64,000 nt of DNA from Podarcis liolepis (lineage: Eukaryota), in the NCBI GenBank assembly GCA_965112155.1, contig OZ218101.1; one strand, written 5' to 3'. The notes under the pieces are model-generated. The model did not search any database, had not been told where the DNA came from, and was given only the letters and a program-made list of their open reading frames with translations. The position numbers and the translations under genes are program-made. Shown here one piece after another: positions 33,867 through 59,887 of the stretch. The stretch's first letter is position 1; each line of letters starts with the position of its first letter.

Positions 33867-34028
33867 AGTCAAATGCTTGGTGTGATGTTCTGGAAGCACA
33901 TCCAGAAGACCATCGTGGACAAGGAGTATGTTGTTGTTTAGTCGTTTAGTCAAATGCTTGGTGTGTTGTTATGGAAGCACATCCAGAAGACCATCGTGGA
34001 TAAGGAGTATGTTGTTGTTTAGTCGTTT
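33867..34028. repeat. 81-bp direct tandem duplication spanning the Bov-B tail/flank junction
   Basis: Units 33867-33947 and 33948-34028 with three visible substitutions and AGTC microhomology at the junction. Confidence 0.9.
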
Positions 34029-34615
34029 AGTCGTGTCTGACTCTTCGTGTCCCCATGGACCAGAGCACACCAGGCACTCCTGTCTTCCACTGCTTCCTGC
34101 AGTTTGGTCAAACTCATGCTGGTAGCTTTGAGCACACTATCCAACCTTCTCGTCCTCTGTCGTCCCCTTCTCCTTCTGCCCTCCATCTTTCCCAACATCA
34201 GGGTCTTTTCCAGGGAGTCTTCTCTTCTCATGAGGTGGCCAAAGTATTGGAGCCTTAGCTTTATGATCTGTCCTTCCAATGAGCACTCGGGGCTGATTTC
34301 CTTAAGAATGGATAGGTTTGGTCTTCTTGCAGTCCATGGGACTCTCAAGAGTCTCCTCCAGCACCATAATTCAAAAGCATCAATTCTTCAGCGATCAGCC
34401 TTCTTTATGGTCCAGCTCTCACTTCATGCATCCCCTTCATGGATCACTGCCTTGCCGTGGCGAAGGGGCTTGAATAACTCAGAGAAGCTAGGCAGGGCCA
34501 CCCAAGATGGACAGGTCATAGTGGAGAGTTTAGACCAAACGTGATCCACCTGGAGGAGGAACCGGCAAATCAGTCCAGTATCCCTGCCAAGAAAACTCCA
34601 TGGACAAAGACAACA
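34011..34615 (-). mobile_element. Bov-B (RTE) LINE with inverted 5' segment
   Basis: 34011-34423 is the 3' end on the minus strand (RVPWTARR..EKTLMLGKMEGRRRRGRQR). 34424-34615 resembles Bov-B 5' sequence (ATGGATCACTGCCTTG.CGTGGCGAAGGGGCTTG) on the plus strand. 12-bp TSD GATAAGGAGTAT (33999-34010, 34616-34627). Confidence 0.85.
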
Positions 34616-34751
34616 GATAAGGAGTATATTAGTGCACAAAACTGATTCAGAATTATTTTAGTAGTAGATAGGTAGCCGTGTTGGTCTGCCATAGTCAAAA
34701 TAAAAAAATTCCTTCCAGTAGCACCTTAAAGACCAACTAAGTTAGTTCTTG

Positions 34752-34789
34752 GTATGAGCTTTCGTGTGCATGCACACTTCTTCAGATAC
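34752..34789 (-). ncRNA. Minimal type I hammerhead ribozyme (inverted copy)
   Basis: Reverse complement reads GTAT-CTGAAGA-AGTGTGCATGCACAC-GAAAGCTC-ATAC. Confidence 0.85.
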
Positions 34790-34790
34790 G

Positions 34791-34832
34791 TGGTATCTGA
34801 AGAAGTGTGCATGCACACGAAAGCTCATACCA
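34791..34832 (+). ncRNA. Minimal type I hammerhead ribozyme
   Basis: TGGTAT-CTGAAGA-A-[GTGTG CATG CACAC]-GAAA-GC-TC-ATACCA. Stem I is TGGTAT/ATACCA; predicted cleavage after UC at 34826. Confidence 0.85.
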
Positions 34833-36677
34833 AGAACTAACTTAGTTGGTCTTTAAGGTGCTACTGGAAGGAATTTTTTTATTTAGAATTATTTTAGTTT
34901 TATACCACCAGCTTTATTTTAGTTTTGACTTATTTTTTAAGCTGCAGAACAAAACGTTGTTCTACACAACCAAGTGGGTATTCCTACATCTACTTTAAAA
35001 CACATTACTGAACACAAAATTGACAAGTAGCCTGTTCATTTTCCTCTTCTTAGACACAGTTTCTGATCAACATCTGTGGTGCTTTAAATGTAAAAATGGA
35101 GCATCTGTATCAGGTTGTATGTGGAAAAGGTCTATAAACTGTTAAATTGGCTAAGTTAGTAAATCAATTCTTTAGCGGGCTTGCCAAGTAGAGTTAACAC
35201 TGATTTATGCACCCTGGGGAGTACATAAAAGACTAGTCTCCTGGGACAATCCTTATATAAAAGAATTTACTAGGCTCACTAATTCATCTGCTATATTTTC
35301 CCCATCTTCGACTGTAGCATTGGGGCAGCGGCTACATTTTTCTAACAGATATATAAAAAGTCATTTTACCATAGTGGGATTTGGTTTTGTAGAACTGATT
35401 TGTACATTTGGGAGGCTGAGCTGTCTTGCAGAAATCTTCAGCTTCAGTTCAGGCTTTCAGTTCTGTAGTCCCTAACCACTGAAAACCACATAAATGTGAT
35501 TTTTCTATTTCTAATGCAGACTTTGGTATATAAAGCTGAAAATGGCCAGGGCTGAGATGTCTGAAGGACCACTTTCTCCTATATCAACCCACCTGCATGT
35601 TAAAATCATCTTCTGAAGCCAGCATCCAGGTGCATACATCTTTGGAAATTCAACAGGATTCTATAGGGAACAATGCTTTTTACCATGGAGCATGTTCTGT
35701 CAGGTACATTTAGTGATTTCTTTTTATTGAAATTATCATATGTACCATGGCCTTTGATTAAATGTAATTAAGGATCATTACTGAACATTACATTAAAGGT
35801 AATTATGGATCATTAGGACCCCCACCCCATAAACTTCTTTTCTGGTGGTAGAAGCTGATGTTTTAAAAGATGTTGGTATGTATTTCTAAGAGTCAATTAA
35901 AGCTATACTGTGTGCTTCTGTAAATAGAAATTTGAGGTATATAGTATCACAGTCATCATCAGAAGACAACAGACAACTGCACAGTATTAAATGTTAGTCC
36001 AAACCCAAGCCAGTGGGCTAGAGTTCTGTGGCCTCCCCCCCCCCCCAAGAGAAGGGTCAAATTATGCCTCAAAACAACATAAGGAGGACTGGGCCAAGAC
36101 ACAGGTGTGTCAGTTGCCTTCAAAGATGCTGTGAGGAAGGAACAGGGATGTACTTGTCCTAGTTCTACACAGGACTAAAGTGCACCCTGTTCTGGTCTGG
36201 CATGGGTATATGTGTTTTATGGGAAATCCACACAAATCCTGAAGAATAAAACCTAATGGAAAATACATATTTTACCATTAAACACACGTACACACATGTG
36301 GCAGTTCAACTTCCACTGCTAACAGTTGTACGAGGTACTTCCATCTTCTTTTGTAGTTTTAAAAAGCTTATTTTTTAATTTTAAAAACTGCAGAAGTGGC
36401 TAGCTAGCATTAGAACCTTCTGCTGCAGTTTCAAGTCCCCCTTGGAGAAAAGTATTTCCTTGTCTCCCTCCTCCCTACAGCTCCCTGTTCTTCTGTATGC
36501 CCTATGGTTTGAGAAGAGCCGTAGCTCAGTGACAATGTATTCAATACGGACCCATGGCCCATGACTTGGTATGAGCAGCTTCCTATGTTCCTGTATCCTC
36601 CTATCTTTTGCCACCTCAGGAAGGAGAAATGCTGGTGGCAGTCTGCATCCGGCTCTGCCAGCTGAACCCAAAGTTGC

Positions 36678-36981
36678 TTATAATAATTTAATAATAATTT
36701 ATTATTTATACCCCGCCCACCTGGCTGGGCTTCCCCAGCCACTCTGGCTGGCTTCCAACAGAGATTAAAAATACATTAAAACGGCAATCATTAAAAACTT
36801 CCCTAAACAGGGCTGCCTTCAGATGTCTTCTAAACATCAGGTAGTTGTTTATCTCTTTGACATCTGCTGGGAGGGTATTCCATAGGGCTGGTGCCACTAC
36901 CAAGAAGGCCCTCTGCCTGGTTCCCTGTAACTTGGCTTCTCGCAGTGAGGGAACCGCCAGAAGGTCCTCAGTGCTGGATCT
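36678..36981 (-). mobile_element. L2-clade LINE 3' end with (TTA)n tail
   Basis: ORF 36706-37065(-) contains RAFLVVAPALWNTLP..FRRHLKAALFREVF, the L2 ORF2 C-terminus. Confidence 0.8.
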
Positions 36982-39129
36982 CACTTTTTGTGGCCAGAAA
37001 ATAGATACACTGGTACCTCCGAAGTTTTGTATGGGGGAAAACAATAGTTTGGTGGTCGACCACATGCTTTGTGTGAAGGAGGTCCAAGCTCAATCCTTGG
37101 CATCTTCAGTTTGAAAGGATCAGATAACAGCTGGTGGGAGAGACTTATTTCTCAGGGTATAGAGAGCTGCTGCCAATCACAGTAGACAAAACTGCCCAAC
37201 ATGGACGTCTGATCTTATATACAGTAGCTCCCTGTGTTCCTTCTTACCCTGCAGGCTGCTGGTTGAGAACTCTATGCTTCCCTATTAATCTTAAACAGCA
37301 ATTTAGCAACTTGAGTCTTGCTCTCAGGTAAATCTGATTGCATTTTATTGGACACAGTTAAAATTCTCTTCAGCTTTCCCCCTTCCTTCATTATTTGCTT
37401 TTCAGAGCAAATACTAGTGTGCTCTTATAGCAGAACTACAAATGGAATTTAACCTTGTTCCCAAGGGCATACTTCAACAAGTTCTTCTCTACATGCAAAA
37501 TTTTGCTATGTAGGTCTTGGATTTGTTTACACTACCTATTGGATAAATATATATATGTATATTTAAGAAGTGATGAAGCAGTTATATGGAAATGGGGAAC
37601 GTGCATTAGTGCAGACTTTTCAAGATGTCCTTGATAGAACAAAGCATGTACGGTCTGCCATTGAAATACTTGATAAATAGTTCAATATTCTGAATGACAA
37701 TTTGCTTTGCTTATTTTGATAAAATGTGCAGCTATTGTTGTTATTCAGCAAGGGTACATGCAGGTAATTTGTACAGAACTAAGTAAATTAAAAATTCATT
37801 ATGATAAAATTATCTTGAACCTACAGAGTACTTGTCCACAGGTAATATTTTCACCTCACAGAAAAGGAGTTACACTGGATTAAGTGAATGGCCCATCTTC
37901 TCCAGCATCTTGCTCACATAGACATCAACCAGATGCCTATGGGAAGCCTGCAGACAGGACATGAGTGCAACAGCAATGTCCCCATTCATCTTCCGGGGCA
38001 ACTGGTATTAAGAGGCAGACTGTGATACTAGAAACAGTACTCACCGTTCTGTTCAAGACACTGACAGACTTGTTTTTAATGAATTTGTTTTACCTACCCA
38101 ACACCTTGTATAGGATGTCATATATGATGGCAGCTGTAGAGAAGAGAGGCGTGGCTTGTCCAAATGTGCCTTGTGAGCCGAATGGAGTGCCCTAATTAGG
38201 CCTGCAGCCTAGAGGTTTTCCACCCACCCCCCCATAATAGAGATGGGGAAGAATTAGTTACATCCACTTTTTGCAGTGAACTGATGGAATCTGAGACCCC
38301 TGGACTTGTTGGCAGATGGAAACACAACTCCCAGCAAGACTGCATTATTCCCTCAATTTTGTGATGCAGTTTCACTGCACAGAAAATACACAAACATACA
38401 TATTATGCATAAACATGCACATTCTACAGGAAAGAAATGCACGGAAAGCATTGAGAAATGCATAGTTTAAATAAAAAGGAAATAATGTATGTAAATAAAT
38501 ATGTACAAAATGCATACAATTTAAATGAGGACTTCTCTTGTGTTCTTTCCAAACCACATCAGATGGGACAGAAATGACCCGTGGAACTGAAACATGATGG
38601 AATTAGATTGCTATAACCCTACCAAAGCAATTTGGTAACATCAGTTCTGGGAGGAGACATGATACTTGGAGGGGGGTAGTGTAAAAACATGGCCAAGCAA
38701 CACCTGTCATGTGAGTCAAGAGGACTCAAATTTCCATGTTCATTTTCTTTTTTGCTCCTCAGGCTCACTCTGGCCTAGTAATCTTGCAATCCATTTTAGC
38801 TATGGCAATTTTAAAGAATAATTCCAATAAGCTGGTACATGTGCAGTTTCCCAAGTAGCTTCTGTTTCTATAGTTAATTTGCATCTTTCTGCCACTTTGC
38901 ATTGCCAGTGAGCTTGTATGCAAAACAGCAATCCTGATATGATTGTAAATTATGGCCATGTACAGGTTTTTGTTTCAGTGTAATGATTTAGCAATATATG
39001 AGAGCGTACATGAGAATCACTAAAAGACACTACACTGAAAGACACAAAGAGGTTTTTGTAGTATGCTTCATGGTGTCCTAATATATACACCTACATCTGT
39101 AATGTAGAAAGAGGGGGTATTAAAAGGTG

Positions 39130-39960
39130 CTGTAAACTACATTCTGTGCAGAATTTAGAAAATTGGATCCTCTTCAAGGATGGTACGCGTTGCGCTCGGG
39201 CCCCCAGGCATCTCCCACCTCCTGGTGTGGGCAGGGCTATGCCCTGCTCCACTCTGGTTGGTTGTTTCATGGTCACTTGTTCCCTAAAGTCAATGGCTTG
39301 GCTTGGAGGGTGGCCACAAAACATTATTTAATCCCTGTGCAAAATTTGCTGGACCTCTTTGCCTTTGCACAGTGGATCACCTGCCCACCCGCCCGCCCCT
39401 TTTATCTGGTGTGTTAGCCTTGCTATGGATGTTGTTGGTCACCTGTTTTGCAATGGGGGCCTGGTAGGAATTTTTCCATCTGGCAGATTGGCAGAGCCAT
39501 TTGCTTTTCACCTACTGCACAGCAATTGTCACAACTTTGTAAGATTTGCTGTTAGGCATTGGATCAGCAATGTGTGGGGAGGTGAGGTGCGGCCATCACC
39601 TGTCACTCCAAGCTCAAGGGTATTTCATTAAAGGAATCAGGGGTTGACCTGGGTCTTGTCCGAAACCCAGCAGTAGGGGCTAGGGCCATACCAGGACCCC
39701 ACAGGGGCACCGGGGGTGAGCTTGAGTTGGTCCGCATCGGCAGGGCTCCCTCTGGTGGTGATTCACCCTTTTATCAGATTCCCCGTGATGTGGATGGGAG
39801 TCTGATATAGTTTGGATGATACCAATGCCTAAGCCAATACCACTCACATTCTGTATTCATTAAAGTTGTGACCTAAATTTTGCCCAATAACATAAACTAA
39901 AAATCCTGTGTCACTGTGTCTTCATTTTTGGGGGTGGTTGCAGTTCTTGAAGCACAAAAG
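39130..39960 (+). mobile_element. Interspersed repeat, possibly a DIRS/Ngaro-type terminal repeat (copy 1 of 3)
   Basis: Shares TTGGCAGATTGGC, TTGTCACAACTTTGTAAG, GGAATC.GGGG, ACCAATGCCTA.GC and A(A/T)TAAAGYTGT blocks with the 54.1-kb and 61.4-kb copies; boundaries approximate. Confidence 0.55.
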
Positions 39961-42111
39961 CAAAGCGGGGAGTGCAGTGGTTTGGGTATTTGAATAGGGG
40001 CAGGTAATTCAAAACTGCAGAATCTTAGAAGAGAGTCAGATGAGGAAAAATTCAAGAGGATTCCTAATAACATTACAGGGCAGTTAAACTTGGGACTTGC
40101 TCTATACAATATTTGGCCTGGTAGTTAATCCAGTCCTGCTGTCCAGTGTTTATTTTGCTACAAGTTGCTCTCATGTTTATTGAAAACACATGGCACAAAA
40201 TTAGATCTGGCGTAGCCTCACATTCACCTAATCCAGAACTAATTTGGGCCTTGCGAAAACACAGCAGATGTGATACGGAGCATTCTAAAACAATAGTTTG
40301 AATCAGGCCTAAACTAGCAGTGATGCTCTTTGAAAGGAGTTGCGTGGGGAGAGCAACTGTGTGCCACTTTGTATGCAGGTGCTAACTCCACAATTGTTAC
40401 GTACTGAATTCCTTCCAGTCAAAAGAATTTGAGGATATGAAGTAAATCTATCCTATTACACTTAAGACATTTTGCCTGGAGAGAAAATTGAGGCGTATTC
40501 AAGAGGCTCTGAAGCATATTTCCCCACTTCCCCTGTTACATATACATACAGAGCTTCCTGCCCTGTATATACTTGGAACATGTCGTGAACAGTAGCACCA
40601 AGGGTATTTAATCCACGTGCCATTAAAATGAATAGCTCAGCATCCAGTGTCATAGAAACTCACTCTTCCCTTATCAGAAGGTTTTAAAAGGAATGTAAAA
40701 GGGGGTATTTAATGGTGTGTTGGATGTTATCCCTCCTTCCTCAGATTCCAACTCAGAATGAAAACGTAACAGACGCATAGTTGATTGAATAAACACACAT
40801 GCACGTACATCATTTTCATCTTCCCTATTCATCCTACACTCCCACACCTATTGAGAAGCAGATACAACAGGCTGTGAAGACTAGATTTAAAATGTATCAC
40901 CCATTAAAATAACCTATGCTGCCCCAAGATTTTTCACTCAAATGAGGGATTTGTTCACTGCAAGAGATTTACCATTTTAATGAAGGAGTTTATGTTGGAG
41001 AATGGAAGAGGCACCCCTCAAAGTTCTGGAAATAAAACTTATGAAAATATTAATTATACCATAGGATTCATTGCAAAAGAGTTTTGCTGTTATTTTAAAG
41101 CTATTTTATGAAGCTATTTTTCATATACTTAGTTGGAAAGATTTATGTTCCGAGATTTAGAGAGGTGAAGCACTGGTTAAAGCAATATATTGTTGCAAAA
41201 GCTATTCCCTGCTCCTGGCCAGTTTATTTTCTTGCACCTGCTGTTTGGAAAAATGTCTATCTATTTTTGCAATAATAGGATTAGAGTGCCTAGCAAGCTT
41301 GCAAAAGGGGAGGGAGATAGATGGGGGGGGGGACAGACACTGCTGGGATTTTTGCCAGTGCAGCCTAAAGAAATGCAGAGACTGGGTATGATCCACCACG
41401 ATGAATTGTTCCTGGAGTCGCTGTTCATTTCAGAGGGTGCATGCTAGCAGTCAGTGCACCACATCCCTTGAGTGAAAACAGTTTCAAAAATATAAAAGGA
41501 TAAGGTGCTAACCCCTATTACAAAGCAAGACTAATCAACTTACTCTTGGCTATACAGATTGTTGGTCCAGAGGAAAAATGTTTCACTGCTGCAAAACCTG
41601 GGGAATTGCTTCGTGGCTGAGACCTTAATTAACTTTAACAATGGGGCAAAATTAGATTGCAAAATCTTCTAGTCACCTAGAAAGTGTTAGAGATTTTCGT
41701 CAGAATAGTTTCAGTGCCCTTCATTCTTTCACTATCCATGTTACAAAATACCCAAAACGCCCTGAAATTTCGGGGGGGGGGGGGACCATTGAGAAAGAGA
41801 GGTCAGTAGGGTTCATGCACAGGGTGTGGTTTTTTTGGGGGGGGTAAAAAAAGGGAATCTGTTGAGCAGGGAAGCCGGATTTATTTATTTACTTAACTGT
41901 TTATAATCTGCACTTTCACAAAATATCTCAAGACAACTTAGAGCACAAAAAAGCTTTTTATGTTGTAAACATAATGAAGGGTTGCATGTAATTTAAATAC
42001 ATACATACATACTATATACAATAAAATCAGTCTATAAATATCCATAAACTATCACTAGATACTGTTTGGTTGAAAAGAAGAATATCTGTATTGTGAAGGC
42101 CTTTCTAAATA

Positions 42112-42337
42112 CAGTCATACCTTGTGTTACGTTTGCTTCACGTTGCGGTTTTTCGGGTTACGTATGTGGCGATCTGCGCGCTTTGTGCATGCACAGAAAC
42201 AATCTGTGCGCTTCGCATATGCGCAGAAGTGCTCTATCGTGCTTCGTGCACACGCAGTAACGGCGCTTTACTTTCAGCTTTTTGGGGTGCAAACGGCACC
42301 CCAAAACGGATTGCATTCGTAAGTAGAAGTACCACTA
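42112..42337. mobile_element. Tc1/mariner (Tigger-like) MITE, opposite orientation to the 16.2-kb copy
   Basis: TA|CAGTCATACCT...GAAGTACCACT with a CpG-rich interior. Confidence 0.75.
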
Positions 42338-42339
42338 GA

Positions 42340-42750
42340 ATACAGCTTTCAGGAGCCACCTAAAAGAAGGTAAGGATGGTTCCTGCTGAACTTCTATAGA
42401 GATGGTTTCCACAAGGCAGGGCCTGCCATGCTAATGACTTGGCTTCTAGTGATGGGCAATTGAACCTCAAGCACATGGAAACCATCAAAAGGGCCTTATC
42501 GGTGAACAAGGTGGACTATAAGGTATCAGGTAGTCTTCAAGGAACATTGAGCCCAGTTTATTAAGGGCTTTCTGAATTAACTCAAGAACCTTGAACTTGG
42601 GTAAGCAGAAAATCAGCAACCAGTGCAGCTCTCTTGGCAGCAGAGAAACATGTTGCCGGTAATCTGTTCCTGTCAGCAGTCTGGCCACTGCATTCTGTAC
42701 TATTTGCAACTTTTGGATCAGGTACAATGAAAGCCACGCATACACCTCCC
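42340..42750 (-). mobile_element. Degenerate L2 LINE fragment
   Basis: ORF 42485-42745(-): KLQIVQNAVARLLTG...RELHWL...KFKVL. Confidence 0.75.
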
Positions 42751-44287
42751 TTCAGTTCTAGCTCCTTGGCCACTATAAATTATGCTCAGCCACCCACGTG
42801 CCTTTCAGATTTCACAAGCTACTGGCATTGTCAGCATGGTATGAGAATTGGTGTTGTATAGTAGTTAGGCTAGGACTGGGCAGTTCTGGCCATTGACCTA
42901 TTTGGATGAACTTGGGCCTGTTGCTAGCTATCAGCCTAATTAATCTATCTAATATGGTGGTTGTGAGGATAAAATGGGGGGGGGGAGGCATATACTCCAA
43001 TCTGAGCTCCTTGAAAGTTGGGAGAAAAATATAACAACAAACTTTTTTAAAAAAGCATGCTCAGAAAATATATTTGCAGCCATTTGGGAAGTGGAGGAGA
43101 TTCTCCCCCTTTTCAATCAATGCTAGGTGGGGGAGGTTATATACTGATTTCTGCACATGGAGATCCTTGCTTGCATGAGGTGATTATGGAAGTGCAGAAT
43201 ACACCTAGCTCTGGACACCTTAGCTATGTAAATGGTGAATTAAATTGACCCCATTGCCTCTGCTACAATTGCCAAAATTGTGCTGTGCTCTTTTCTGCCA
43301 ATTTCCCATCTGAAATAATTGATAACTTTTTCAGGTAGGAAGAGTAAATCCAAGAGATCAAATATGGCATCTGCAGACAGAACTTTAGCCCTTAAGGTAG
43401 ATCTTCCTCAAATCCTGTTTTCAGAAAGTTGAAAGCAAATATATCGTTTTGAGAAATATATTTTGGGCTTGCTATTTCCCTTGTCTAGAGTACAGCATTA
43501 TCTTACACCTTAGGGTAGCAGTAGCAGATCAGAGTCAATCCTTTCCTTGCCTACCAATGCAAATTTTAAACATGAACTTGCACTAAATTAACAGTAGGGA
43601 AATGATGCAGGGTAGAAATCTCTATACTGTGAAAATCTAATATAAACCTGATAGGAAAAATAATCCTATTACTGGACTCTGCATATCCTGTTTGAGTGGA
43701 ACCCTTTGAAATAAACATAAAGTTAAAAAAAGAAAAACCTGGAAAGAAAATGGATGCTGTAAATAAACATGGTGCTACATTTCTCACAGTAAGTGGAATA
43801 AAAAATAATACATGCATACAACCTTGCCTTTGTATTAGTAAGTATATATTTTTGGGAAGCATAAATGTTTGATAAAAGGGCTTTGTTTTAGCAACTTGTA
43901 GAAACAGCATGGTAAGTTTGGTACTCTGAAAGATTAAGGTTGATTTTTGAGGGGATAAATAATCAAATTGAGATGGAGAAACCTTTACATTCCATAAGTT
44001 GCCCCCAGGCAGACTAGCCAAAACCAGAAATAGTGAGAGTTGTAATTGCATAGCATATGGAGGACCACAGGCAACCCATCACTGGCTTAGATGGATAGAT
44101 GTAACCTGGTGATGACAGTTGCTTTCTATTCTCCCCAGCCAGAAAAAGCTGTTCAGATGGGAAGTTGGTATTTCCCACCTCCCAAAAGGCACTCTACACA
44201 GATCATATCTCTGAGGGTTGCGAAATGATGGCTTCTTCCTGGCAGACATGTGCCAGAATAATTCTTGTTGTTCCTGGCTGGCTAAGC

Positions 44288-44423
44288 CAGGCTTCCTCAA
44301 CCTCAGCCCTCCAGATGTTTTTGGCCTACAACTCCCATGATCCCTAGCTAGCAGGACCAGTGGTCAGGGATGATGGGAACTGTAGTCTCAAAATATCTGG
44401 AGGGCTGAGGTTGAGGAAGCCTG
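44288..44423. mobile_element. 136-bp palindromic hAT MITE
   Basis: CAGGCTTCCTCAACC...GGTTGAGGAAGCCTG; perfect 8-bp TSD GGCTAAGC. Confidence 0.9.
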
Positions 44424-47380
44424 GGCTAAGCTACAGTGCATTACACCTTCGAAGTACAACCTTCTCCTGTGGATGGAAGGATCTGGAGATGTTGGCCGTT
44501 TCTCATTTTCCCCATCTTAAATTCAGTTCTCCACATTTCTGCAGCAATTTGTAACTTTTTAAAAAAGAAAATTCAACAGCATTTTAGTACAGAATTCTCC
44601 CAATAAGCACATTTTTGTAGGCAAGTTTGACTAATGTGCACAATTCTGAAAGCAATTTTTCATAATATAACACACTTTTGTATGTTATTTTCACTAATGT
44701 TTTATTTTTTTAACGCACCCTTTCCTCTAATATACAGTAAACCCACATCTTACACACATTTAACATATATTATTTCATCCATATGTGGTTGGAGGCAGGC
44801 CCGTGAGGGGAAGGATCAGAAGTGATAGTTGGAAACCCCAAGTGAACTCAGTGCAAGAATAGGAAGCTATTAAAGTTATCAGCCTTTCTTCCCGAGCAAT
44901 TCCTGCTTGGTGCACCTTGCGAGTGGAGTCCCTGTGGCCTCTGGTACAGTAGCTCTGGGAGTGGTGGGGATGCACTCTCAGAGCCACCATATTACCAGAG
45001 CTGCTTGGGGCTTCTAGCTTCCTTCAATCTCTGATCCTCCCTCTCATAGGAAGTGGGCTGCTTAGCTCCAGGGGTGCTCCAAAGGTAATTTTGGCTTTAT
45101 GTGATTTTTGTGCATACACATAACCCTTGGAACTGAAACCCTTTGTATGATGCAAGTTGCCTGCATGCATTTTTGTAAACACCGGTTGGTTGGAGAGCTG
45201 CATCACAACATTTGGATAAATGCAAAATTTGAAGAATGATTCTATTTTCTCTCACACATTGTTTCCGTAAGTGTGAGTTTGATCAATCTGTTCTTAAATG
45301 TGAACTGAATCAAATTTCTCCCCATCTCAGCTTGCTCAACTTCTTATACTTCACAGAGGTAAACAAATGCCCCCCCCCCCAATTCACCAACCATATCATG
45401 CCAAGTTTGATGCCTGACACCTATGTAGCTCTGGAAAAACAAGTGCTACTGCTGCCTTCCTCGAAAACCACCCGCCCTGCAAAGAATGCTACAATTTCTT
45501 CTGCTGCTCCATCTCTCTCTTTCTCTCTGCCCCCTCTATTTACCCTTCCTCTGAATTTCAGCACCCCATGTCCCTTCTGCTCTAGGAAAACTCTTTAAAA
45601 ATCCAGTTTAACTCTATTAAACACACATTATATACTTTCCCATAATACAGTATCTCATGCCTTTAGGGGAATATTTGTAAGAATACAAAATGTGATAAAT
45701 GCTTGGGAATTGTTACGGTTGCCATTTTTCGAAAAGTAAGAAACAGGACACTCACGACACCCTGAAAGTTGTTGAGCCGTTTTTAGGCAAACCCCAGAGT
45801 TGTTGAGCTTTATTTAGTAAAAGCTACAAGAGTTTTTGAGTTTGGCATAGCTAAAATGGTCAGCACTGCCATATCAGCTTGATAGTGTAAAAGCCATACC
45901 AGCAGCAGAAGAAAAAGGCTTTCTCCCAGTCACTCCTTTATTGCTCCAGGCATTGCCTGCTGCTTCTGTTCCTGCTGTGTCTGGACTGAAAGCTGCTAAG
46001 AGCTGACTGGGTATGATACAGTTGGAACCTGGCCTTCAAAAATAAAATAAAATAAAATAAAATAGGTCACACATATTTATTATTTCTTGGTAATAGGAAG
46101 TTGGGAGACTGTGTCAAAGTGAACTGTGTCTCATGGCATATCATCAAACATTCTTCAGTTGAAAATAGGGACATTTCTCACTCCCCCCCCCAACTGACCC
46201 TTCTTAACCCTCCCCCCTTTTTAGTGTCCCCCCCCCCTGCAAAGCATCACCTATCAGATGCAGAACGAGTGCTACCACCATGACACCAATAGGATGCAGC
46301 ACACATGCCCTCAACCATCCTGGAAAAAACCGTCCTTAATCCAGATTTTATTTTATATTATTCTTTGGTAGATTTACAAAAAGAAAAAAAAGGGGGAGAA
46401 AATGACAAGTGCTAGAATATATAGAGAACTACATCAAGGGCACAGAGAGAGAGAGGCAAGGAGAGAATTCATAAATTTGCTAGCAAAAAGGATAATTTTA
46501 TTTTTTTAAAAAAAGAATGCTGCACACCTTAAATTTGGCACAGGTGAGTAGAAAAGTGAGCTAATTCAGTGTGGTAAAAATTAGAGTTGGGTACCAAAAG
46601 AGATCTGTAGAAATAGTGACAGAGAGGAATATAAGAACTAAGCTCACAGATCAGGTGAATTAGGTAGGATTAGAAATTGCATTTGAACTACAAGAGTGCT
46701 CAGGTAGTTAATGGGTTGGGTTAATATGCATTTAGGATGTGTGTGTGTGTGTGTGTGTTTTAATGCAGTTAGAATTTTTAAAAAATAGATCTAAGTTTCA
46801 GTATAGGAATTGCACTGATTCGTCTACCAAGTTGTGCTCTACTATTCTGCAGCTTAGCTGAAATAAACAACAGAAGGTTTATTATAACAGCACACTTGCT
46901 CCTGAAGAATACAAATGTAATCAACACCGGTAAATGCAAATTTGTTGGGCAATAGTGCTACCCTTTTGAAGAAACACTGACATTTCCTCTCTGTTCAAAA
47001 CCCTTTAACTATCTTACCACTTATTAAAACCATCAGTGTTTTAAGATCCAACAAAACAAGACAATGAAAGTGTAAATTGGATTTGGGATGTTTGAGGAAT
47101 TTGATAGCTACGACTTGATCTACATGTCTGGGGACCAATGTGTGGATTGTAATTTGGCAACCCACCAGATTTCATACTTCCCTGAATGTGGCAATGGAAT
47201 TATTGGCAGATAATATATGGAGAGCGTATATAAAAAAATAATTCAGCAGAGAAATACAAACTTTGAGCTAAAGTACCATAGAGTAGGGAATTCTAACTAA
47301 ACATTAGGAATAACGTTTTGACAGAAGAGCTGTTTGTCAGGACAATTTTTATTCCAAGAATATTAAGTTTTTATTCATAC

Positions 47381-48013
47381 TGTTATTGTTTAGTCGTTTA
47401 GTCGTGTCCAACTCTTCGTTTCCCCATGGACCAGAGCACGCCAGGCACTCCTGTCTTCCACTGCCTCCTGCAGCTTGGTCAAACTCATTTTCGTAGCTTC
47501 AAGAACACTGTCCAACGATCTCATCCTCTGCTGTCTCCTTCTCCTTGTGCCCTCCATCTTTCCCAACATCAGGGTCTTTTCCAGGGAGTCTTCTCTTCTC
47601 ATGAGGTAACCAAAGTATTGGAGCCTCAGCTTCAGGATCTGTCCTTCCAGTGAGCACTCAGGGCTGATTTCCTTCAGAATGGATAGGCTTGATCTTCTTG
47701 CAGTCCACGGGACTCTCAAGAGTCTCCTCTAACACCATAATTCAAAAGCATCAATTCTTCGGCGATCAGCCTTCTTTATGGTCCAGCTCTCACTTCCATA
47801 CATCACTACTGGGAAAACCATAGCTTTAACTATATGGACCTTTGTAGGCAAAGTGATGTCTCTGCTTTTTAATATGCTGTCTAGGTTTGTCATTGTTTTT
47901 CTCCCAAGAAGCAGGCGTCTTTTAATTTGGTGGCTGCTGTCACCATCTGCAGTGATCCTAGAGCCCAAGAAAGTAAAATCTCTCACTGCCTCCATTTCTT
48001 CCCCTTCTATTTG
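47381..48013 (-). mobile_element. Bov-B (RTE) LINE 3' fragment
   Basis: QIEGEEMEAVRDFTFLGS...LDSILKSRDITLPTKV.IVKAMVFPVVMYGSESWT and RVPWTARR motifs; CAA-type tail. Confidence 0.93.
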
Positions 48014-51000: not shown

Positions 51001-51889
51001 GAAAAGAGTATAAAATTCTATGTTTGTGGTTTCCTGTGCTCACCTGTACTCTCAAAATATTGTTGGCTTACCTTGGCTTTTTACAGTTTTATTTGTTTGG
51101 GGTGTTTTTTCCAGTTTTCTTCTTCCACCTTAGTTACAGTTTACAGTTTTATTTGTTCTGAGTGCTGGTGCAGCACCAGACAGTAAGAGTTTGCTTTAGA
51201 AAATAAAAGTATACCTATGTGTTGAAGGCAATTATTTTTGGTATGTGCGGTCACATCCCAGCAAAATGCAAGACATCAAAAGGACACATACCATACTACA
51301 AACACCTTATGAAAACAATATTGCTAGCAGCTTTAAGTAAAGCAAGTTACTAGCTAATATTATTTCTGGTTAATGGATTAAATCCATTATAATGCTCACG
51401 TTATAAGAAAAAAGGTGGGGGCTCATCATGAAATCTACAAGGCCCACCCCAGACTCCCTACCACCACCAGTTGAGCCACCTTTAAGACCTAGGGCTTGTT
51501 CCTATGCTTTGCAAGTTCTCTGGCTTAAATTTAATTGGTTTTTGAATCCAATTATTGGCTGTCTTACTACCATGTGTTAATCCTTTACATTGGAAATAAA
51601 TACTACAAAGGAATGAGCTCAGTTAAAAAAACTCCAAATGAATTAAATCATTGTTTGTTTCAAGTTGTCCTTTTGAGCCATACCAGAGGGCTGCCTTCAA
51701 TATATGGTTATACTTTTATTTAGCTCCAGAGCACAGCTCTGGTCCCAGCTCCATGCCACTAAATAGCGCAGCAATGTTTTGGGATGGGATGTCAAATAGT
51801 GCACCAGGGCTAGGGCTTCCCAAAGGCAAGCAAAAAAGGGCAACATAGATGTGGCTAGGTTTCCTAACATGACACATTAGCTTCAAGCA

Positions 51890-52223
51890 GGGACGGGGAC
51901 TTATAAAAAATATTGGGGGGGGGCCGGGAAAGCTCATGAATAATAAATAAGCTCATGAATATGCAAATAAAGTGGCGCCGCCTCCTCGTGAGCAAATAGG
52001 GGAGAGCGTGCTGCTCCTATTAATCAGCTCCGAAGGTGGAGCTTTTGCTCGGGAGGGAGGTCAGGAGGCATGCAGCCCGACCCTGTGCATTTTGGGCTGG
52101 GGGAGGGGCGGCGATGGCGCTCTGCTGGAGGGGCGCCGGAGATTATTGGGGGGGCGGAGCCCCCCCAAACGAATTTTTGAGGGGGCTCGGGCCCCCTCAA
52201 GCCCCATGGAGTCGGCGCCTATG
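51890..52223. mobile_element. GC-rich hAT-like transposon fragment
   Basis: Ends in GGAGTCGGCGCCTATG; a related terminus CATAGGAGCCAACTCC occurs at 3030. Confidence 0.5.
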
Positions 52224-54119
52224 GCTTCAAGAGCACAAACCATTGCCTGTGCTGATTCATCCAGACTCAATACATCTCACTAGGTTTAAATCCAATTCCT
52301 CCTGTTCAGTTTGTTTGTAGATTTGGACCTGTATAATTTTATTCTGCTGCTGATTTCAATTTACTAAATAAATTTTAAAAATGCAAATCTGCTCTGATCC
52401 TTTCCTCACATGCACTAGGGTAGTATCAAACTTAATGGAATTGTAATGATGTGAGCCTCTGCTTCCCCGCTGCTTTTGGATGTGTACCCACCATGAACGC
52501 TAATAATTTAAAAGAAAATACATAAAAGCTTTCAGTTGCAAATCCAGAGTCAAGTTGTTACTATGTCTTCCTTTTTAAAATGTGCGGTGTAGTCTCATTT
52601 TAAGGTTTACCTTGAGATGCATAACAGCTGGTGTTTAGGCCATTCACTTGTCTCAAAAGGTATGATTTATTCACAAACCTGTTGCATAGCATTTGTCCAC
52701 CATCACAAGGCAGGAAAACCCAAGGTCCCCAGAGACCAGGCGAAATTCCTTACTCTCTAAACATCATTTTAAGAGCTAGAAGAAGATAATCATGCCCTGT
52801 GTATACATATAACACTCATCCAATATGCTATCTTTTTAACTTTTTGCCATAAACATCCCTTTAATCTCCCACTTTACCAGCAATTTAAAAGAAAATCTAC
52901 CAGTTTGGCTGGTGTTATCATTTTTATTCATTAAGCATCTTGCATGCCCTTATTAGTATGCAAGGCTATGTTAGACTAACCTTCAGAGTTCACAGTCTAA
53001 AAGGTTTAAGTAACCAGATGAACCCTCTTCAGGTGCAGTGCACTGACTGCTAAACTGACTGATGATTTTTTCAGGATTGTGAACTTTCGTAGTCTTCCCA
53101 TTACACATGCAATGCAAAAACTCTGGTTCTGATGATGAAGCTAATGAAGTTCAGGAATCTTCAGTTTATAAAGGTGTGTACATGGGGGAATGTTGCAAAG
53201 GTGTTTAACATTAAAAAAGCCCTGCTGAAGACCACCTAGTCCAGCATCCTTTTTCTTCAAATGGCATTTTTTTCAGATAAAATATCTAAGAGTTCTCATT
53301 TTCCTGGAACGAGAAATTTTGAAGATTTTTCACTGTTCATTCTCCACCATTTGTTAATGGCATTGGCAGCCATTATTTACCTCCAGAGCCAACACTAGGT
53401 CCACTGTGGAGAACGCAAGTAGAAAAACACAGTTGTTGTTGTTGCTGCTGCTGCTGTTTGCATTCACAACAACAACACCAACAACAAAATCTTTCTGAAT
53501 AAAGAGCCCATGTGCTACTGTCATTACTAATGGAGAGCCCTTCTCCCGGGAGACTGTTGGATAACCTCCTGCCCCAGGAGAATTTCAGTGAAATGAACCC
53601 CAAACCTTTCTGGCCACAAATATAATTTCAAGAAACTCTTTGCACACTTCTCTGGTATTTTTTAAACATCTACACAACAATTACTAAATTTCAAAGGTTG
53701 GTGGGGACTAGCAACATTATAACATCCAGTTTGCAAGCCAAAATCAAATTCTAAGCACTCTTAATTTAAACTAGGGGTCAATCCAATGAGATTTAGGAAT
53801 GTAGGAAGCTGGTTTATGCAAAGTCAGACCACAGGTCCATCTAGGTTCTCTCTAATTATAAGGTCTTATAATTTGTATGCAAGATAGCTATTAGTCTGCC
53901 AGGCAAATATATACAGTTAAGTTGAACAAAAACAGTTCAGTATTAGTTAAAAAGCTATCACATACCAACTATATAAGCACAAAATGAACAAACTTCGTAT
54001 ATGGCAGTCCAAATTGCTAAGATAAATGTGGGCCATATTGACACCCCCTTCCTTTTTCATCACTGCACAATAATTTTTAAATGCAATCTCACCAGTTAAT
54101 CATAAGAAACAACAAATGG

Positions 54120-54880
54120 GATCCTCCTAAATCGAGGGTCCTGGTTGCACTCAGGACCCTTAAGCCCCCCCCCCCGGGTGTGTTGTTGCTAGGAGTGGCC
54201 CAAGCCTTGTCTGTTGGGCCCTGGGCGCTTGGCTGTTTGGGCCAATTGTGGCGAGTGGGCGTGATCCCAGGAACCTATAAATGCGGCAGCGTGACAGGGA
54301 TGGGGCACTTGTTATGCGCTGCCAAACACCCGTCCTCCCCCTGAATTTATGTGCTGCTGCTTTGGTCTTGCTTTGGATTGGGTCACCTGCTTTGGAGCAG
54401 GGGCTGGGTAGGAATTTTTCCATTTGGCAGATTGGCTTAGCCACTTGGTTTTCACCTACCCCCTTAGCAATTGTCACAACTTTGTAAGGTTTGGTGGTTT
54501 ATAGAAATGTGTGGGAGGGGAGGTGTGGCCATCACCTGCCCTTCTAGAAATAGGGTATTCCGGTAAAGGAATCGGGGGGTCCTGGATCTCGTTTGAAGTC
54601 TGCTTGAGGGACTAGGGCCATGCCAGGACCACAGGAACCCCAGGGTGAGCTTCAATTGATCTTCACCGATGTTGCTCCCTTGTTTGGTGTTTACCCTTTC
54701 AGACTGCCAGCCAGAGAGGCTGGAGTCAGTTATAGTCTCTGACCAATGCCTAGGCCAATACCGCACAATTTGTTTTGTAATCAATAAAGCTGTAGCCAAA
54801 TTTTGCCGAAAAACTTAAACTAAAATTATGTGTCCGTTTGAAGTTATTTTACTGGAAAAGGGCTTGTGGGGCCTTGGGGC
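54120..54880 (+). mobile_element. Interspersed repeat, possibly a DIRS/Ngaro-type terminal repeat (copy 2 of 3)
   Basis: Same collinear blocks; TATAAA at about 54276 and AATAAA at about 54783. Confidence 0.55.
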
Positions 54881-54998
54881 ACAATCCAATAATAATGAAT
54901 AAACAACAATTTTATTCACATGGAATTTCTGTGCCCTATCAGTGCATTATGCAGTATATTAAAACTGAATTTCTGCTCCAGAAACTTTGCACAATACA

Positions 54999-55342
54999 AA
55001 ATAAAAAAATTCCTTCCAGTAGCACCTTAAAGACCAACTAAGTTAGTTCTTGGCATGAGCTTTCGTGTGCATGCACACTTCTTCAGATACACTGAAACAG
55101 AAGTTGCCAGATCCTTCTGTATAGTGAGAAGGTGGGGAGGGGTATTACTCAGAAGGGTGGTGGGAATGGGAGATTGGCAGATAGCTGAGATGAGCCTGTT
55201 GACGACTCTTAACGACTGCAATAGGTCTTACAGGAAAAGGCAAGGGGTGAGAAGGTGAAAAATGGCTTAGTCATGTATAATGAGATAAGAATCCAATGTC
55301 TTTGTTCAGACCAGGTCTCTCCATGGTTTTAAGTTTGGTAAA
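54999..55342 (-). mobile_element. 5'-truncated Neptune-type PLE (ORF C-terminus + 3' terminal repeat)
   Basis: Terminal ~92 bp nearly identical to the 34.7-kb arms. The minus strand encodes TKLKTMERPGLNKDIGFLSHYT*, resembling the end of a PLE GIY-YIG ORF. 13-bp TSD TTTGCACAATACA at 54986-54998 and 55343-55355. Confidence 0.85.
55053..55090 (-). ncRNA. Minimal type I hammerhead ribozyme
   Basis: GTAT-CTGAAGA-AGTGTGCATGCACAC-GAAAGCTC-ATGC; stem I is retained via a G.U pair. Confidence 0.8.
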
Positions 55343-55381
55343 TTTGCACAATACAGTAACACACATTCACACAATATCCAG

Positions 55382-55383
<2 letters not shown>

Positions 55384-55432
<49 letters not shown>
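55384..55432. repeat. (AT)n microsatellite (left PLE flank)
   Basis: Pure dinucleotide run. Confidence 0.98.
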
Positions 55433-55435
<3 letters not shown>

Positions 55436-55480
55436 GGTTTTGGTGTCTTCGGGTGTCTTCCCGTGTAAGAGTTGGGGTGT

Positions 55481-55525
55481 CTAGGCGACGTTTCGACGAG
55501 GTCTCACTCGTCATCTTCAGGCTGG
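55481..55525 (-). ncRNA. Mirror copy of the minimal hammerhead-like motif (left arm)
   Basis: Reverse complement of 59706-59750. Confidence 0.7.
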
Positions 55526-55757
55526 TGCTTTCGGCTTCTTGTTACTGGAACAGAGCAGGATCTCAGTGTTTGAGTTCCTATAAATACTGTTGAGGGGGTG
55601 TGGTGTATAGCCTCCGACGTTCTGGGCAGAGAGGAAGTTCCCAGGTTAGTGTGCCTTTTCTTCTTTTGTTCCTTAATTACTTGAGGGATATCTTGAGTGA
55701 TTTCTTGAGTGATATTCTGAGTACCACTTAGGAGGGTCATTAAGTGTGGATTAGTTG

Positions 55758-57617
55758 CTAAAGCTTTCGTGTCTTGACCTCTTGAGCTTGTGAAGAGTTT
55801 TTCTGAGAAGATGGCTGTACTGCACTTAGTTGTGCTCTGGCTTGGCTTCGTGTATAGGGGCGAGCTGTGGTTTTGTGCCCTGTGCCAGCCAGATCTGTGT
55901 AGGGATTGCAGGGGGGTGCAGCATCCGGAGGTGCCACTATGGTTTGGCTACTGGATGGTGTCTGTAATTTATCTGTGGAGAGGGTCTGGGTTTGGGTCTG
56001 GTGTGGTTGATTGGTGATGGCGTTCTGTGTGCCTCTGGTTCTGGTGTCGGTTTTTGTGGGGAGGGCTAATTTCCAGATGTCTGGCAGGCGGGACGTGTCG
56101 TCACGCTTGTTCATGTTGTGAGGGTGTTTCTCTATCTCGATGGCTTCCATGATTATTCTCTTGTGGTGATGTTCCATGTTAAAGAGCAATTTGGAATCTG
56201 CAAAATTAATTTCGTGTCCTGTTTCTTTCATGTGTTGGAAAAGAGAGGAAGTTTTTTCTTCTTTTTTGACGGCATTCTTGTGTTCTGCGATACGTGCATT
56301 TATTCGTCTGTTTGTTTGTCCAATGTACGTGGCTGGGCAGACTTTGCAGGGTATTTCATAGACCCCTTGGTTTTCCAACTGGATTTTATCTTTGGGGTTT
56401 CTGAGGATATTGGCTATTTTTTGGTTGGTGCAAAAGGCTGTTTTGATATTGTGTTTATGGAGGATTTTGCTAATTTTATCTGTAGTGCCCTTGATATAAG
56501 GAAGGAGGGCCATGCCATTGTTTTCTTCTGTGTCTTGGTTTTTGGGGGGTGTTTCTTTTTGGATTAGCTTCGTAACCCTGTTTTGCTGGTATCCATTGGC
56601 GATTAACACATTTGAGAGATTCTGTAACTCAGTTGTCAAGTGGTCTTTGTCAGCCAGGCGTTTGGTTCTGGAGATGAGAGTCTTGGCTACGGAGTTTATT
56701 TGTGCAGGGTGGTGGTGTGATTGTGCATGTAAGTAGCGGTTGGTGTGTGTTTTTTTCCGGTAGATAGTGTGTCCTAGGGAGCCATCAGGTTTTTTGTAGA
56801 TTAGGACGTCAAGGAAGGGAAGTTGGTTGTTGGCTTCTATTTCCATAGTGAATTGTATTTTGGGGTGTAGGCTGTTGAGATGTGTGAGGAAGCTATCTAG
56901 TTTTTCTTTCCCGTGTGGCCAAATTACAAAGGTGTCGTCAACATATCTGAGCCAAAGTTTGGGTTTGTGTTCTGACTTGTCTAAAGCATTGGTTTCAAAG
57001 TGTTCCATGTACAAATTTGCGATGACCGGTGAGAGGGGTGATCCCATAGGTGCTCCTTCTATCTGTTTGTATCTTTGTCCATTGTGGATGAAGTACGTGT
57101 TGGTTAGGCAGTGGTTGGTCAGGTCCAGGATGTATTCGGGGGGATTGTATTTGTTTCGAATGGCTGTCAAGGCTTCATTAATGGGCACTTGTGTGAAGAG
57201 AGATACAACATCGAAGCTCACAAGTAGGTCATCGGGATGTAGGTTTTGCTTCTTTATTGTTTCTATGAACTGGAAGGAGTTAGTAACGTGTGAAGCGATG
57301 GATTCTGCATAGGGCTGAAGTTGCTTAGCGAGAAATTTAGCGAGATTTTGTAGAGGTGAGCCTATGGAGCTGACTATTGGTCTGAGTGGTGTTCCTTCTT
57401 TGTGTATCTTAGGGAGACCGTAGAGTTTGGGGCATCTGGATGATTTTTCTCTGGGGATGATTCTTAGCTGGATTTCTTCACTGATAGGAGAGGCTTTTAT
57501 TTTGGATTTGGTGGTTTTTTCCAGATAGGTGGTGGGATCTGTTTTTATAGGTTGGTAGGTAGGGTCTTGGAGTAGATTTGATAGTTTTGCTTGGTAGTCC
57601 GATGTGTTCATCACAAC
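55758..57617 (-). CDS. PLE reverse transcriptase + GIY-YIG endonuclease, left arm (N-terminally truncated)
   Basis: Same protein as the right arm except LAKQ vs LTKQ and NRV vs NMV. It extends a few codons further 5' (VVMNTSDY), with an in-frame ATG at 57611-57609. Confidence 0.95.
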   Translation of the reverse strand, partial: VVMNTSDYQAKLSNLLQDPTYQPIKTDPTTYLEKTTKSKIKASPISEEIQLRIIPREKSSRCPKLYGLPKIHKEGTPLRPIVSSIGSPLQNLAKFLAKQLQPYAESIASHVTNSFQFIETIKKQNLHPDDLLVSFDVVSLFTQVPINEALTAIRNKYNPPEYILDLTNHCLTNTYFIHNGQRYKQIEGAPMGSPLSPVIANLYMEHFETNALDKSEHKPKLWLRYVDDTFVIWPHGKEKLDSFLTHLNSLHPKIQFTMEIEANNQLPFLDVLIYKKPDGSLGHTIYRKKTHTNRYLHAQSHHHPAQINSVAKTLISRTKRLADKDHLTTELQNLSNVLIANGYQQNRVTKLIQKETPPKNQDTEENNGMALLPYIKGTTDKISKILHKHNIKTAFCTNQKIANILRNPKDKIQLENQGVYEIPCKVCPATYIGQTNRRINARIAEHKNAVKKEEKTSSLFQHMKETGHEINFADSKLLFNMEHHHKRIIMEAIEIEKHPHNMNKRDDTSRLPDIWKLALPTKTDTRTRGTQNAITNQPHQTQTQTLSTDKLQTPSSSQTIVAPPDAAPPCNPYTDLAGTGHKTTARPYTRSQARAQLSAVQPSSQKNSSQAQEVKTRKL

Positions 57618-57622
57618 ATCAC

Positions 57623-59473
57623 AACACATCGGACTACCAAGCAAAACTATCAAATCTACTCCAAGACCCTACCTACCAACCTATAAAAACAGATCCCACC
57701 ACCTATCTGGAAAAAACCACCAAATCCAAAATAAAAGCCTCTCCTATCAGTGAAGAAATCCAGCTAAGAATCATCCCCAGAGAAAAATCATCCAGATGCC
57801 CCAAACTCTACGGTCTCCCTAAGATACACAAAGAAGGAACACCACTCAGACCAATAGTCAGCTCCATAGGCTCACCTCTACAAAATCTCGCTAAATTTCT
57901 CACTAAGCAACTTCAGCCCTATGCAGAATCCATCGCTTCACACGTTACTAACTCCTTCCAGTTCATAGAAACAATAAAGAAGCAAAACCTACATCCCGAT
58001 GACCTACTTGTGAGCTTCGATGTTGTATCTCTCTTCACACAAGTGCCCATTAATGAAGCCTTGACAGCCATTCGAAACAAATACAATCCCCCCGAATACA
58101 TCCTGGACCTGACCAACCACTGCCTAACCAACACGTACTTCATCCACAATGGACAAAGATACAAACAGATAGAAGGAGCACCTATGGGATCACCCCTCTC
58201 ACCGGTCATCGCAAATTTGTACATGGAACACTTTGAAACCAATGCTTTAGACAAGTCAGAACACAAACCCAAACTTTGGCTCAGATATGTTGACGACACC
58301 TTTGTAATTTGGCCACACGGGAAAGAAAAACTAGATAGCTTCCTCACACATCTCAACAGCCTACACCCCAAAATACAATTCACTATGGAAATAGAAGCCA
58401 ACAACCAACTTCCCTTCCTTGACGTCCTAATCTACAAAAAACCTGATGGCTCCCTAGGACACACTATCTACCGGAAAAAAACACACACCAACCGCTACTT
58501 ACATGCACAATCACACCACCACCCTGCACAAATAAACTCCGTAGCCAAGACTCTCATCTCCAGAACCAAACGCCTGGCTGACAAAGACCACTTGACAACT
58601 GAGTTACAGAATCTCTCAAATGTGTTAATCGCCAATGGATACCAGCAAAACATGGTTACGAAGCTAATCCAAAAAGAAACACCCCCCAAAAACCAAGACA
58701 CAGAAGAAAACAATGGCATGGCCCTCCTTCCTTATATCAAGGGCACTACAGATAAAATTAGCAAAATCCTCCATAAACACAATATCAAAACAGCCTTTTG
58801 CACCAACCAAAAAATAGCCAATATCCTCAGAAACCCCAAAGATAAAATCCAGTTGGAAAACCAAGGGGTCTATGAAATACCCTGCAAAGTCTGCCCAGCC
58901 ACGTACATTGGACAAACAAACAGACGAATAAATGCACGTATCGCAGAACACAAGAATGCCGTCAAAAAAGAAGAAAAAACTTCCTCTCTTTTCCAACACA
59001 TGAAAGAAACAGGACACGAAATTAATTTTGCAGATTCCAAATTGCTCTTTAACATGGAACATCACCACAAGAGAATAATCATGGAAGCCATCGAGATAGA
59101 GAAACACCCTCACAACATGAACAAGCGTGACGACACGTCCCGCCTGCCAGACATCTGGAAATTAGCCCTCCCCACAAAAACCGACACCAGAACCAGAGGC
59201 ACACAGAACGCCATCACCAATCAACCACACCAGACCCAAACCCAGACCCTCTCCACAGATAAATTACAGACACCATCCAGTAGCCAAACCATAGTGGCAC
59301 CTCCGGATGCTGCACCCCCCTGCAATCCCTACACAGATCTGGCTGGCACAGGGCACAAAACCACAGCTCGCCCCTATACACGAAGCCAAGCCAGAGCACA
59401 ACTAAGTGCAGTACAGCCATCTTCTCAGAAAAACTCTTCACAAGCTCAAGAGGTCAAGACACGAAAGCTTTAG
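57623..59473 (+). CDS. PLE reverse transcriptase + GIY-YIG endonuclease, right arm (N-terminally truncated)
   Basis: Motifs YGLPKIHK, LRPIVS, LVSFDVVSLFT, GAPMGSPLSP, WLRYVDDTF, LPFLDV and YRKKT (RT), then GVYEIPC..C..YIGQT.R...R..EH (GIY-YIG). The frame is open to TAG at 59473. The ORF-track start at 57578 lies in the opposite arm and is artefactual. Confidence 0.95.
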   Translation, partial: NTSDYQAKLSNLLQDPTYQPIKTDPTTYLEKTTKSKIKASPISEEIQLRIIPREKSSRCPKLYGLPKIHKEGTPLRPIVSSIGSPLQNLAKFLTKQLQPYAESIASHVTNSFQFIETIKKQNLHPDDLLVSFDVVSLFTQVPINEALTAIRNKYNPPEYILDLTNHCLTNTYFIHNGQRYKQIEGAPMGSPLSPVIANLYMEHFETNALDKSEHKPKLWLRYVDDTFVIWPHGKEKLDSFLTHLNSLHPKIQFTMEIEANNQLPFLDVLIYKKPDGSLGHTIYRKKTHTNRYLHAQSHHHPAQINSVAKTLISRTKRLADKDHLTTELQNLSNVLIANGYQQNMVTKLIQKETPPKNQDTEENNGMALLPYIKGTTDKISKILHKHNIKTAFCTNQKIANILRNPKDKIQLENQGVYEIPCKVCPATYIGQTNRRINARIAEHKNAVKKEEKTSSLFQHMKETGHEINFADSKLLFNMEHHHKRIIMEAIEIEKHPHNMNKRDDTSRLPDIWKLALPTKTDTRTRGTQNAITNQPHQTQTQTLSTDKLQTPSSSQTIVAPPDAAPPCNPYTDLAGTGHKTTARPYTRSQARAQLSAVQPSSQKNSSQAQEVKTRKL

Positions 59474-59705
59474 CAACTAATCCACACTTAATGACCCTCC
59501 TAAGTGGTACTCAGAATATCACTCAAGAAATCACTCAAGATATCCCTCAAGTAATTAAGGAACAAAAGAAGAAAAGGCACACTAACCTGGGAACTTCCTC
59601 TCTGCCCAGAACGTCGGAGGCTATACACCACACCCCCTCAACAGTATTTATAGGAACTCAAACACTGAGATCCTGCTCTGTTCCAGTAACAAGAAGCCGA
59701 AAGCA

Positions 59706-59750
59706 CCAGCCTGAAGATGACGAGTGAGACCTCGTCGAAACGTCGCCTAG
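59706..59750 (+). ncRNA. Minimal hammerhead-ribozyme-like motif in the Poseidon-type PLE 3' terminus
   Basis: CTGAAGA-T-[GACGAG/TGAGAC/CTCGTC stem II]-GAAA-CG-TC. Core boxes are intact, but stem I is only about 2 bp (GC/GC). Confidence 0.7.
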
Positions 59751-59826
59751 ACACCCCAACTCTTACACGGGAAGACACCCGAAGACACCAAAACCTGCAT
59801 TCCTGTACCCGTGAAAATCTACGAAA

Positions 59827-59828
<2 letters not shown>

Positions 59829-59887
<59 letters not shown>
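59829..59887. repeat. (AT)n microsatellite (right PLE flank)
   Basis: Pure dinucleotide run. Confidence 0.98.

Follow-up and report, generated by a model that had tools for sequence, protein, structure and literature searches.

The window (the whole stretch of 64,000 nucleotides of Podarcis liolepis DNA that was analysed; contig OZ218101.1, GenBank assembly GCA_965112155.1) contains two head-to-head palindromes, both of which are young insertions of Penelope-like retrotransposons (Penelope-like elements, PLEs), as well as a linear copy of the element that makes up the smaller palindrome. Each palindrome carries a short tail at the outer end of one arm only. A first-pass annotation had pointed to this layout, i.e., an extension of 30 nt on the right arm of the large palindrome and of about 35 nt on the left arm of the small one; both extensions were found as described (Table 1).

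Palindromic insertions in the window

The open reading frame (ORF) of the large arm matched RVT_1 (E 1.4e-15) and, at residues 435–474, GIY-YIG (E 7.6e-4, which is below the Pfam curated cut-off). The best protein match was a Podarcis muralis protein (95% identity), and Anolis protein P0059 was matched with 45% identity over 83% of the query (E 4e-139). Judged from these similarities, the large element is likely a Poseidon-like, endonuclease-containing (EN+) PLE with a truncated 5' end. The small element, of which 23 codons of the ORF remain, is taken by us to be Neptune-like; its ORF remnant had no match in Pfam. No DNA similarity was detected between the two families (best blastn E 0.11), which agrees with their description as unrelated. 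Both elements fit EN+ PLEs in their optional 3' tail of 30–40 nt, the inverted or direct arrangement of pseudo-long terminal repeats (pLTRs) and the 5' truncation, and also in their targets, with target site duplications (TSDs) of 14 and 13 bp and (TA)n flanks. A hammerhead core pattern was present in all five element 3' ends, but also at 11 other sites of the window, and at the gathering score Rfam gave no hits.

The arms of the small palindrome (92 nt) are identical, and a 14-bp TSD, which was absent from the first-pass annotation, encloses the whole insert. This TSD and the 13-bp TSD of the linear copy were not matched as well in any of about 2000 random windows. As had been stated, the linear copy and the tail-less right arm of the small palindrome share their last base, with an ambiguity of 0–2 nt, because the tail and the TSD start with the same two letters. 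Between the TSD of the linear copy and the (TA)n tract of the large palindrome there are a mere 28 nt (55356–55383); thus, the two PLE families lie side by side.

The inverted arms of the large palindrome (55431–57608 and 57623–59800) comprise 2178 nt each and differ by two mismatches. The left arm abuts the (TA)n tract directly at 55431, whereas the right arm continues for 30 nt before (TA)n is reached; the final 2 nt of this tail are indistinguishable from the tract. Numbered from the ATG within the hammerhead-like core, the element ends are at +84 (tail-less) and at +112 to +114 (outer). Both Poseidon-type ends (59796–59800 and 59826–59830) close with the same four letters, the last two of which could pair with a (TA)n primer. 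Homologues of the large element read ATVVMNTSDY, and the left, tail-less arm keeps this reading for 9 nt past the start of the right arm. Since the native reading is thus extended on the tail-less arm, the spacer of the large palindrome is the end of the tail-less arm's cDNA, plus an 8-nt duplication and 3–4 nt of microhomology. Both differences between the arms are derived on the tailed arm, the family having G at 57902 and 58653.

The large right arm was compared, up to position 59828, with four public sequencing runs (X24, X1, X15 and X3), possibly of related species; the library of X24 is Hi-C, and ligation junctions may underlie its other loose ends. The tail-less end at 59800, followed by (TA)n, recurred in 4/4 runs (261 reads of X24, and 17, 21 and 4 contigs of X1, X15 and X3, respectively). 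Because the TSD-flanked linear copy ends at the tail-less end point of the small family and exits from the large element at 59800 occur in all runs, the tail-less end is a true start of first-strand synthesis. The claim of two defined 3' end points within one insertion therefore holds: one insertion uses both. Among the joints listed for the runs, none had a strand change. Both large arms carry alleles which are in the minority in all four runs (57820, 58074, 59498 and 59615), and they also have a common frameshift near the end of the ORF; thus, both arms stem from one source template. With respect to P0002 and P0020, this frameshift is situated in a low-complexity stretch after the endonuclease (59440–59473 and the mirror position on the left).

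Table 1. Positions of the PLE insertions and of their parts in the window.
Feature	Position	Strand	Remarks
TSD of 14 bp, small palindrome, left copy	34649..34662	.	chance test
Tail of 35 nt, small element, left arm only	34663..34697	-	outer 3 nt may be target-derived
Small palindrome, left arm (3' end of PLE)	34698..34789	-	hammerhead-like core 34754–34785
Spacer of 3 nt at head-to-head junction	34790..34792	.	
Small palindrome, right arm, tail-less	34793..34884	+	hammerhead-like core 34797–34828
TSD of 14 bp, small palindrome, right copy	34885..34898	.	
TSD of 13 bp, linear copy, left copy	54986..54998	.	chance test
Linear copy of small element's family, 5'-truncated, tail-less	54999..55342	-	23 codons of ORF end and 3' repeat
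TSD of 13 bp, linear copy, right copy	55343..55355	.	
(TA)n target tract, left of large palindrome	55384..55430	.	TSD unreadable there
Poseidon-type palindrome, left arm, tail-less	55431..57617	-	native reading VVMNTSDY to 57617, 9 nt further 5' than right arm
Spacer of 14 nt	57609..57622	.	5' extension of tail-less arm and 8-nt tandem duplication; 3–4 nt microhomology joins right arm
Poseidon-type palindrome, right arm	57623..59800	+	5'-truncated reverse transcriptase (RT)-GIY-YIG ORF (to 59473); 3' pLTR, hammerhead-like core 59711–59746, ATG at 59717
Tail of 30 nt, right arm only	59801..59830	+	frame from ATG 59717 reads SCTRENLRKH, end at +112 to +114
(TA)n target tract, right of large palindrome	59831..59886	.	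flanks tail

Tails in independent insertions

A census of related insertions was based on 100 loci of Poseidon-like RTs, namely the best 80 of 452 confirmed from metagenome contigs and 20/20 from genome contigs, which presumably represent host DNA of other animals. Loci L081–L100, with Penelope-like RT-endonucleases, are on contigs filed as bacterial metagenome-assembled genomes, which is likely due to contamination from animal hosts. No relatives were found among viral contigs, and the exact 27-nt pattern used for the small family had 0 matches in the metagenome contigs.

An inverted pair at the element 3' end occurred in 25 of the 100 loci. Twelve of these were dropped, since one of their arms extends to the end of the contig, and L020 and L021 represent a single insertion; 12 distinct loci were left, and nine of them could be resolved by their TSDs (exact in L039, L056, L020, L092, L090 and L075; length in related loci, 9–15 bp). 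Exactly one extension of 29–38 nt was present in each of the nine, on the inverted arm in six cases and on the direct arm in three. That the extension belongs to the element was confirmed for L039, L056 and L075 with the help of a tandem or sister copy; by eye, it is similar to sister tails in L012, L020, L090 and L095, and in L008 and L092 it is unconfirmed. If each end chose its start site independently, the probability of exactly one tail would be at most 0.5, which gives P ≤ 0.002 for 9/9 and P ≤ 0.016 for the six firmest cases. Since all nine insertions and the two copies of the window have exactly one tail, which may be on either arm, the choice of start site at one end of an insertion event is not independent of that at the other.

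The tail as such does not mark palindromes, since linear copies of both kinds exist: a tail is present in L040, L072 and L076, for which neither a TSD nor an inverted copy in the available flank was found, and L079 and the linear copy of the window are tail-less. The expectation that inverted insertions have one tailed arm and linear copies none was thus borne out in its first part only. In L040 (position 5562) the internal pLTR of a tandem copy lacks about 60 nt, i.e., the whole tail region, at a 2-nt microhomology. The proposal that symmetric arms belong to the shared architecture applies to both window copies, but most independent cases are very unequal, with arms of 46 or 172 nt against 1.6–1.9 kb. 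L082 has a near-symmetric head-to-head junction (1306–1307) with an offset of 10 nt and no clear microhomology, and both of its outer ends run off the contig.

These unequal arms bear on the "EN-mediated resolution" suggested in PMC8557442, according to which a single tailed cDNA snaps back and the endonuclease cuts or stops the second arm at the tail boundary. Such a process would automatically yield exactly one tail and would fit L056, L090 and L008, in which the tail is on the long arm; also, recognition by the Penelope endonuclease reportedly depends on the tail (cited in PMC11167929). In L020, L012, L092 and L095, however, the tailed arm is the short one and therefore cannot have templated the long, tail-less arm. 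Furthermore, the spacer is predicted to derive from the tailed arm, whereas that of the large palindrome derives from the tail-less arm, and a tail-less linear copy with a clean TSD exists. As sole mechanism, this process is already contradicted, and we regard it as quite improbable.

Near-perfect arms of 2.2 kb between two (TA)n tracts could also raise the suspicion of an artefact of assembly or library, produced by fold-back reads. This deserves next to no credence, since two sites and the tail distinguish the arms, a TSD encloses the small palindrome, and the same layout is present at nine independent loci and in the literature.

A stem-loop in which the tail forms the 3' strand and the inner site is near the loop was predicted in both window families (z -2.1 and -1.2). 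Its conservation was dropped as a general claim; in the 12 ends that were folded, the tail formed anything between 0 and 21 pairs with upstream sequence.

Formation of inverted insertions

The data argue against one cDNA snapping back and favour twin priming from both nicks. The first-pass annotation had reasoned that snap-back of a tail-less cDNA cannot give a tailed arm. Such a cDNA has indeed no source for the tail, and the argument is sharpened by the tail-less arm of the large palindrome extending further 5'. Snap-back of a tailed cDNA predicts the opposite polarity of the spacer. We consider it probable, at about 60%, that inverted PLE insertions form by twin target-primed reverse transcription (TPRT) from two start sites of a single RNA. 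Staggered nicks with two 3'-OH ends are implied by the TSDs of the window (14 and 13 bp) and of the related loci. The element endonuclease would nick both target strands, 9–15 bases apart, and each free target end would prime one cDNA on the same RNA, one from the outer start site, with inclusion of the tail, and the other from the inner start site 30–38 nt upstream. The two cDNA ends would then be joined head to head, perhaps with the help of microhomology or after a template jump. Within an event, each primer would take a different start site, plausibly via two RT subunits on one RNA. Near-perfect palindromes, such as those of the window, would result when both cDNAs stop within 0–9 nt of each other, and linear copies, tailed or not, would be events with a single productive cDNA.

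Several observations weigh against twin TPRT or against the count on which it draws. The TSDs of L095, L012 and L008 contain one mismatch, for three of the 12 distinct inverted candidates (L022, L035 and L100) no TSD settled the structure, and in L075, which has a deletion on the tail-less side, the assignment is based on a short remnant. In L015/L016 and L049/L052 the inverted arm begins inside the ORF; in L046 the inverted arm is tailed, but the direct arm stops about 70 nt early, and there is no TSD. In the bulk data of PMC11167929, start sites were alike for top and bottom strands. Two independent cDNAs stopping within 0–9 nt of each other, as in the window, or 10 nt in L082, would be explained more simply by a fold-back. 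Finally, in the large palindrome it is the tailed arm that carries the derived state at both sites of difference, which is what copying from a copy would produce (the probability by chance is 0.25, and one of the changes is a CpG transition).

The last two points would be accommodated by a hybrid course, in which a tail-less cDNA folds back at its 3' end and copies itself, and the second nick primes no more than a short cDNA with the tail, which pairs with the product of the fold-back. The tailed arm would then for the most part have been copied from its partner, but the need for two primers and two start sites would remain. The tiny spacers (14 and 3 nt), the derivation of the large spacer from the tail-less arm, with its microhomology and 8-nt stutter, and the position of both arm-specific changes are in its favour, and it explains the near-perfect symmetry of the window copies better than twin TPRT does. 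For the strongly unequal cases it is unnecessary, the L082 junction is without clear microhomology, and the informative substitutions number two only; it appears unlikely. Self-priming on an antisense transcript was put forward for head-to-head junctions with palindromes (PMC3846280). It leaves unexplained that both outer ends are at RT start sites of the sense RNA, and the in vitro work has a sense template; thus, we hold it to be most improbable.

Other repeats of the window comprise a self-complementary MITE-like (miniature inverted-repeat transposable element) sequence of 140–150 nt, present in two copies of opposite orientation which are 93% alike (25544–25679 and 44287–44424), and a SINE-like (short interspersed nuclear element) repeat in three copies, about 91% alike (18230–18571, 34010–34432 and 47381–47804), the middle one of which is preceded by an 85-nt tandem duplication (33867–34032).

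Relation to known elements

The layout is a clean example of a PLE architecture that is already known. A tail on one of two inverted pLTRs has been published in PMC3846280 (Arkhipova 2013, Pen2a_Av) and in PMC8557442 (Craig 2021, Fig. 2), and two RT start sites which bound the tail were described in PMC11167929 (Frangieh 2024) for the Anolis Poseidon element PAc, studied by TPRT in vitro; the novelty that had been attributed to the layout and to its two end points is therefore not upheld. The published inverted-pLTR PLEs have an optional tail of 30–40 bp, as do the window copies; the latter differ by their near-perfect symmetry (offset of 0–9 nt) and, in the large one, by arms of 2.2 kb. The relevant passages of PMC3846280 and PMC8557442 contain no counts; the explanation given there is resolution by the endonuclease for the tail, or self-priming on antisense RNA for the inversion. 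A literature search with partial coverage, which did not extend to the Penelope papers of 2004–2006, found no statement that, within one inverted PLE insertion, the start site differs between the two ends; such a statement may already be in print.

The large element is similar to PAc in several respects. It belongs to the same clade by sequence (44–45% identity to P0059, the N-terminus of which agrees by eye with the PAc RNA template printed in PMC11167929). Further common features are an ATG located in the hammerhead-like core, targets rich in AT and a tail that is delimited by two RT start sites. In that paper, the RT start of PAc was mapped to +111 to +118, and the text does not say which of the two sites this is; the outer end of the large element falls within that range. 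The positional match is only suggestive, because BLASTP of the N-terminal peptide of the large element against P0059 gave no significant alignment. Also according to PMC11167929, initiation takes place inside the RNA, both target strands are cut and extended, and a dimer is predicted. The paper's text differs from the present data in having neither inverted insertions nor the site used by each target end per event.

Twin priming of LINE-1 (L1) is a second parallel, since there, too, a single RNA is primed by both target strands, and microhomology joins the cDNAs within a TSD (passages of PMC12016303 and PMC11702581). According to the same passages, the second L1 primer anneals internally near the end of the first cDNA, and the arms barely overlap, whereas both PLE cDNAs would start at fixed 3'-end sites about 30 nt apart, and the same sequence would be copied twice. 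Both window arms carry the 3' end, and an arm with an internal start, as expected of L1-type priming, was seen only in L015/L016 and L049/L052.

The count of one tail per inverted insertion and the polarity of the spacer add a small, testable constraint on the way in which PLEs make inverted insertions. As a more tentative extension, to which we give somewhat less than even odds, a dimer of the PLE RT-endonuclease may bind a single RNA in such a way that each start site is occupied by one of its two active sites. The two target ends would then be committed to different sites, the rule of one tail would be strict, and every inverted insertion would be a double first-strand synthesis. If true, the tail, the inverted pLTR and the TSD would all result from a single step, and paired, anti-correlated start sites would be predicted for each DNA molecule.

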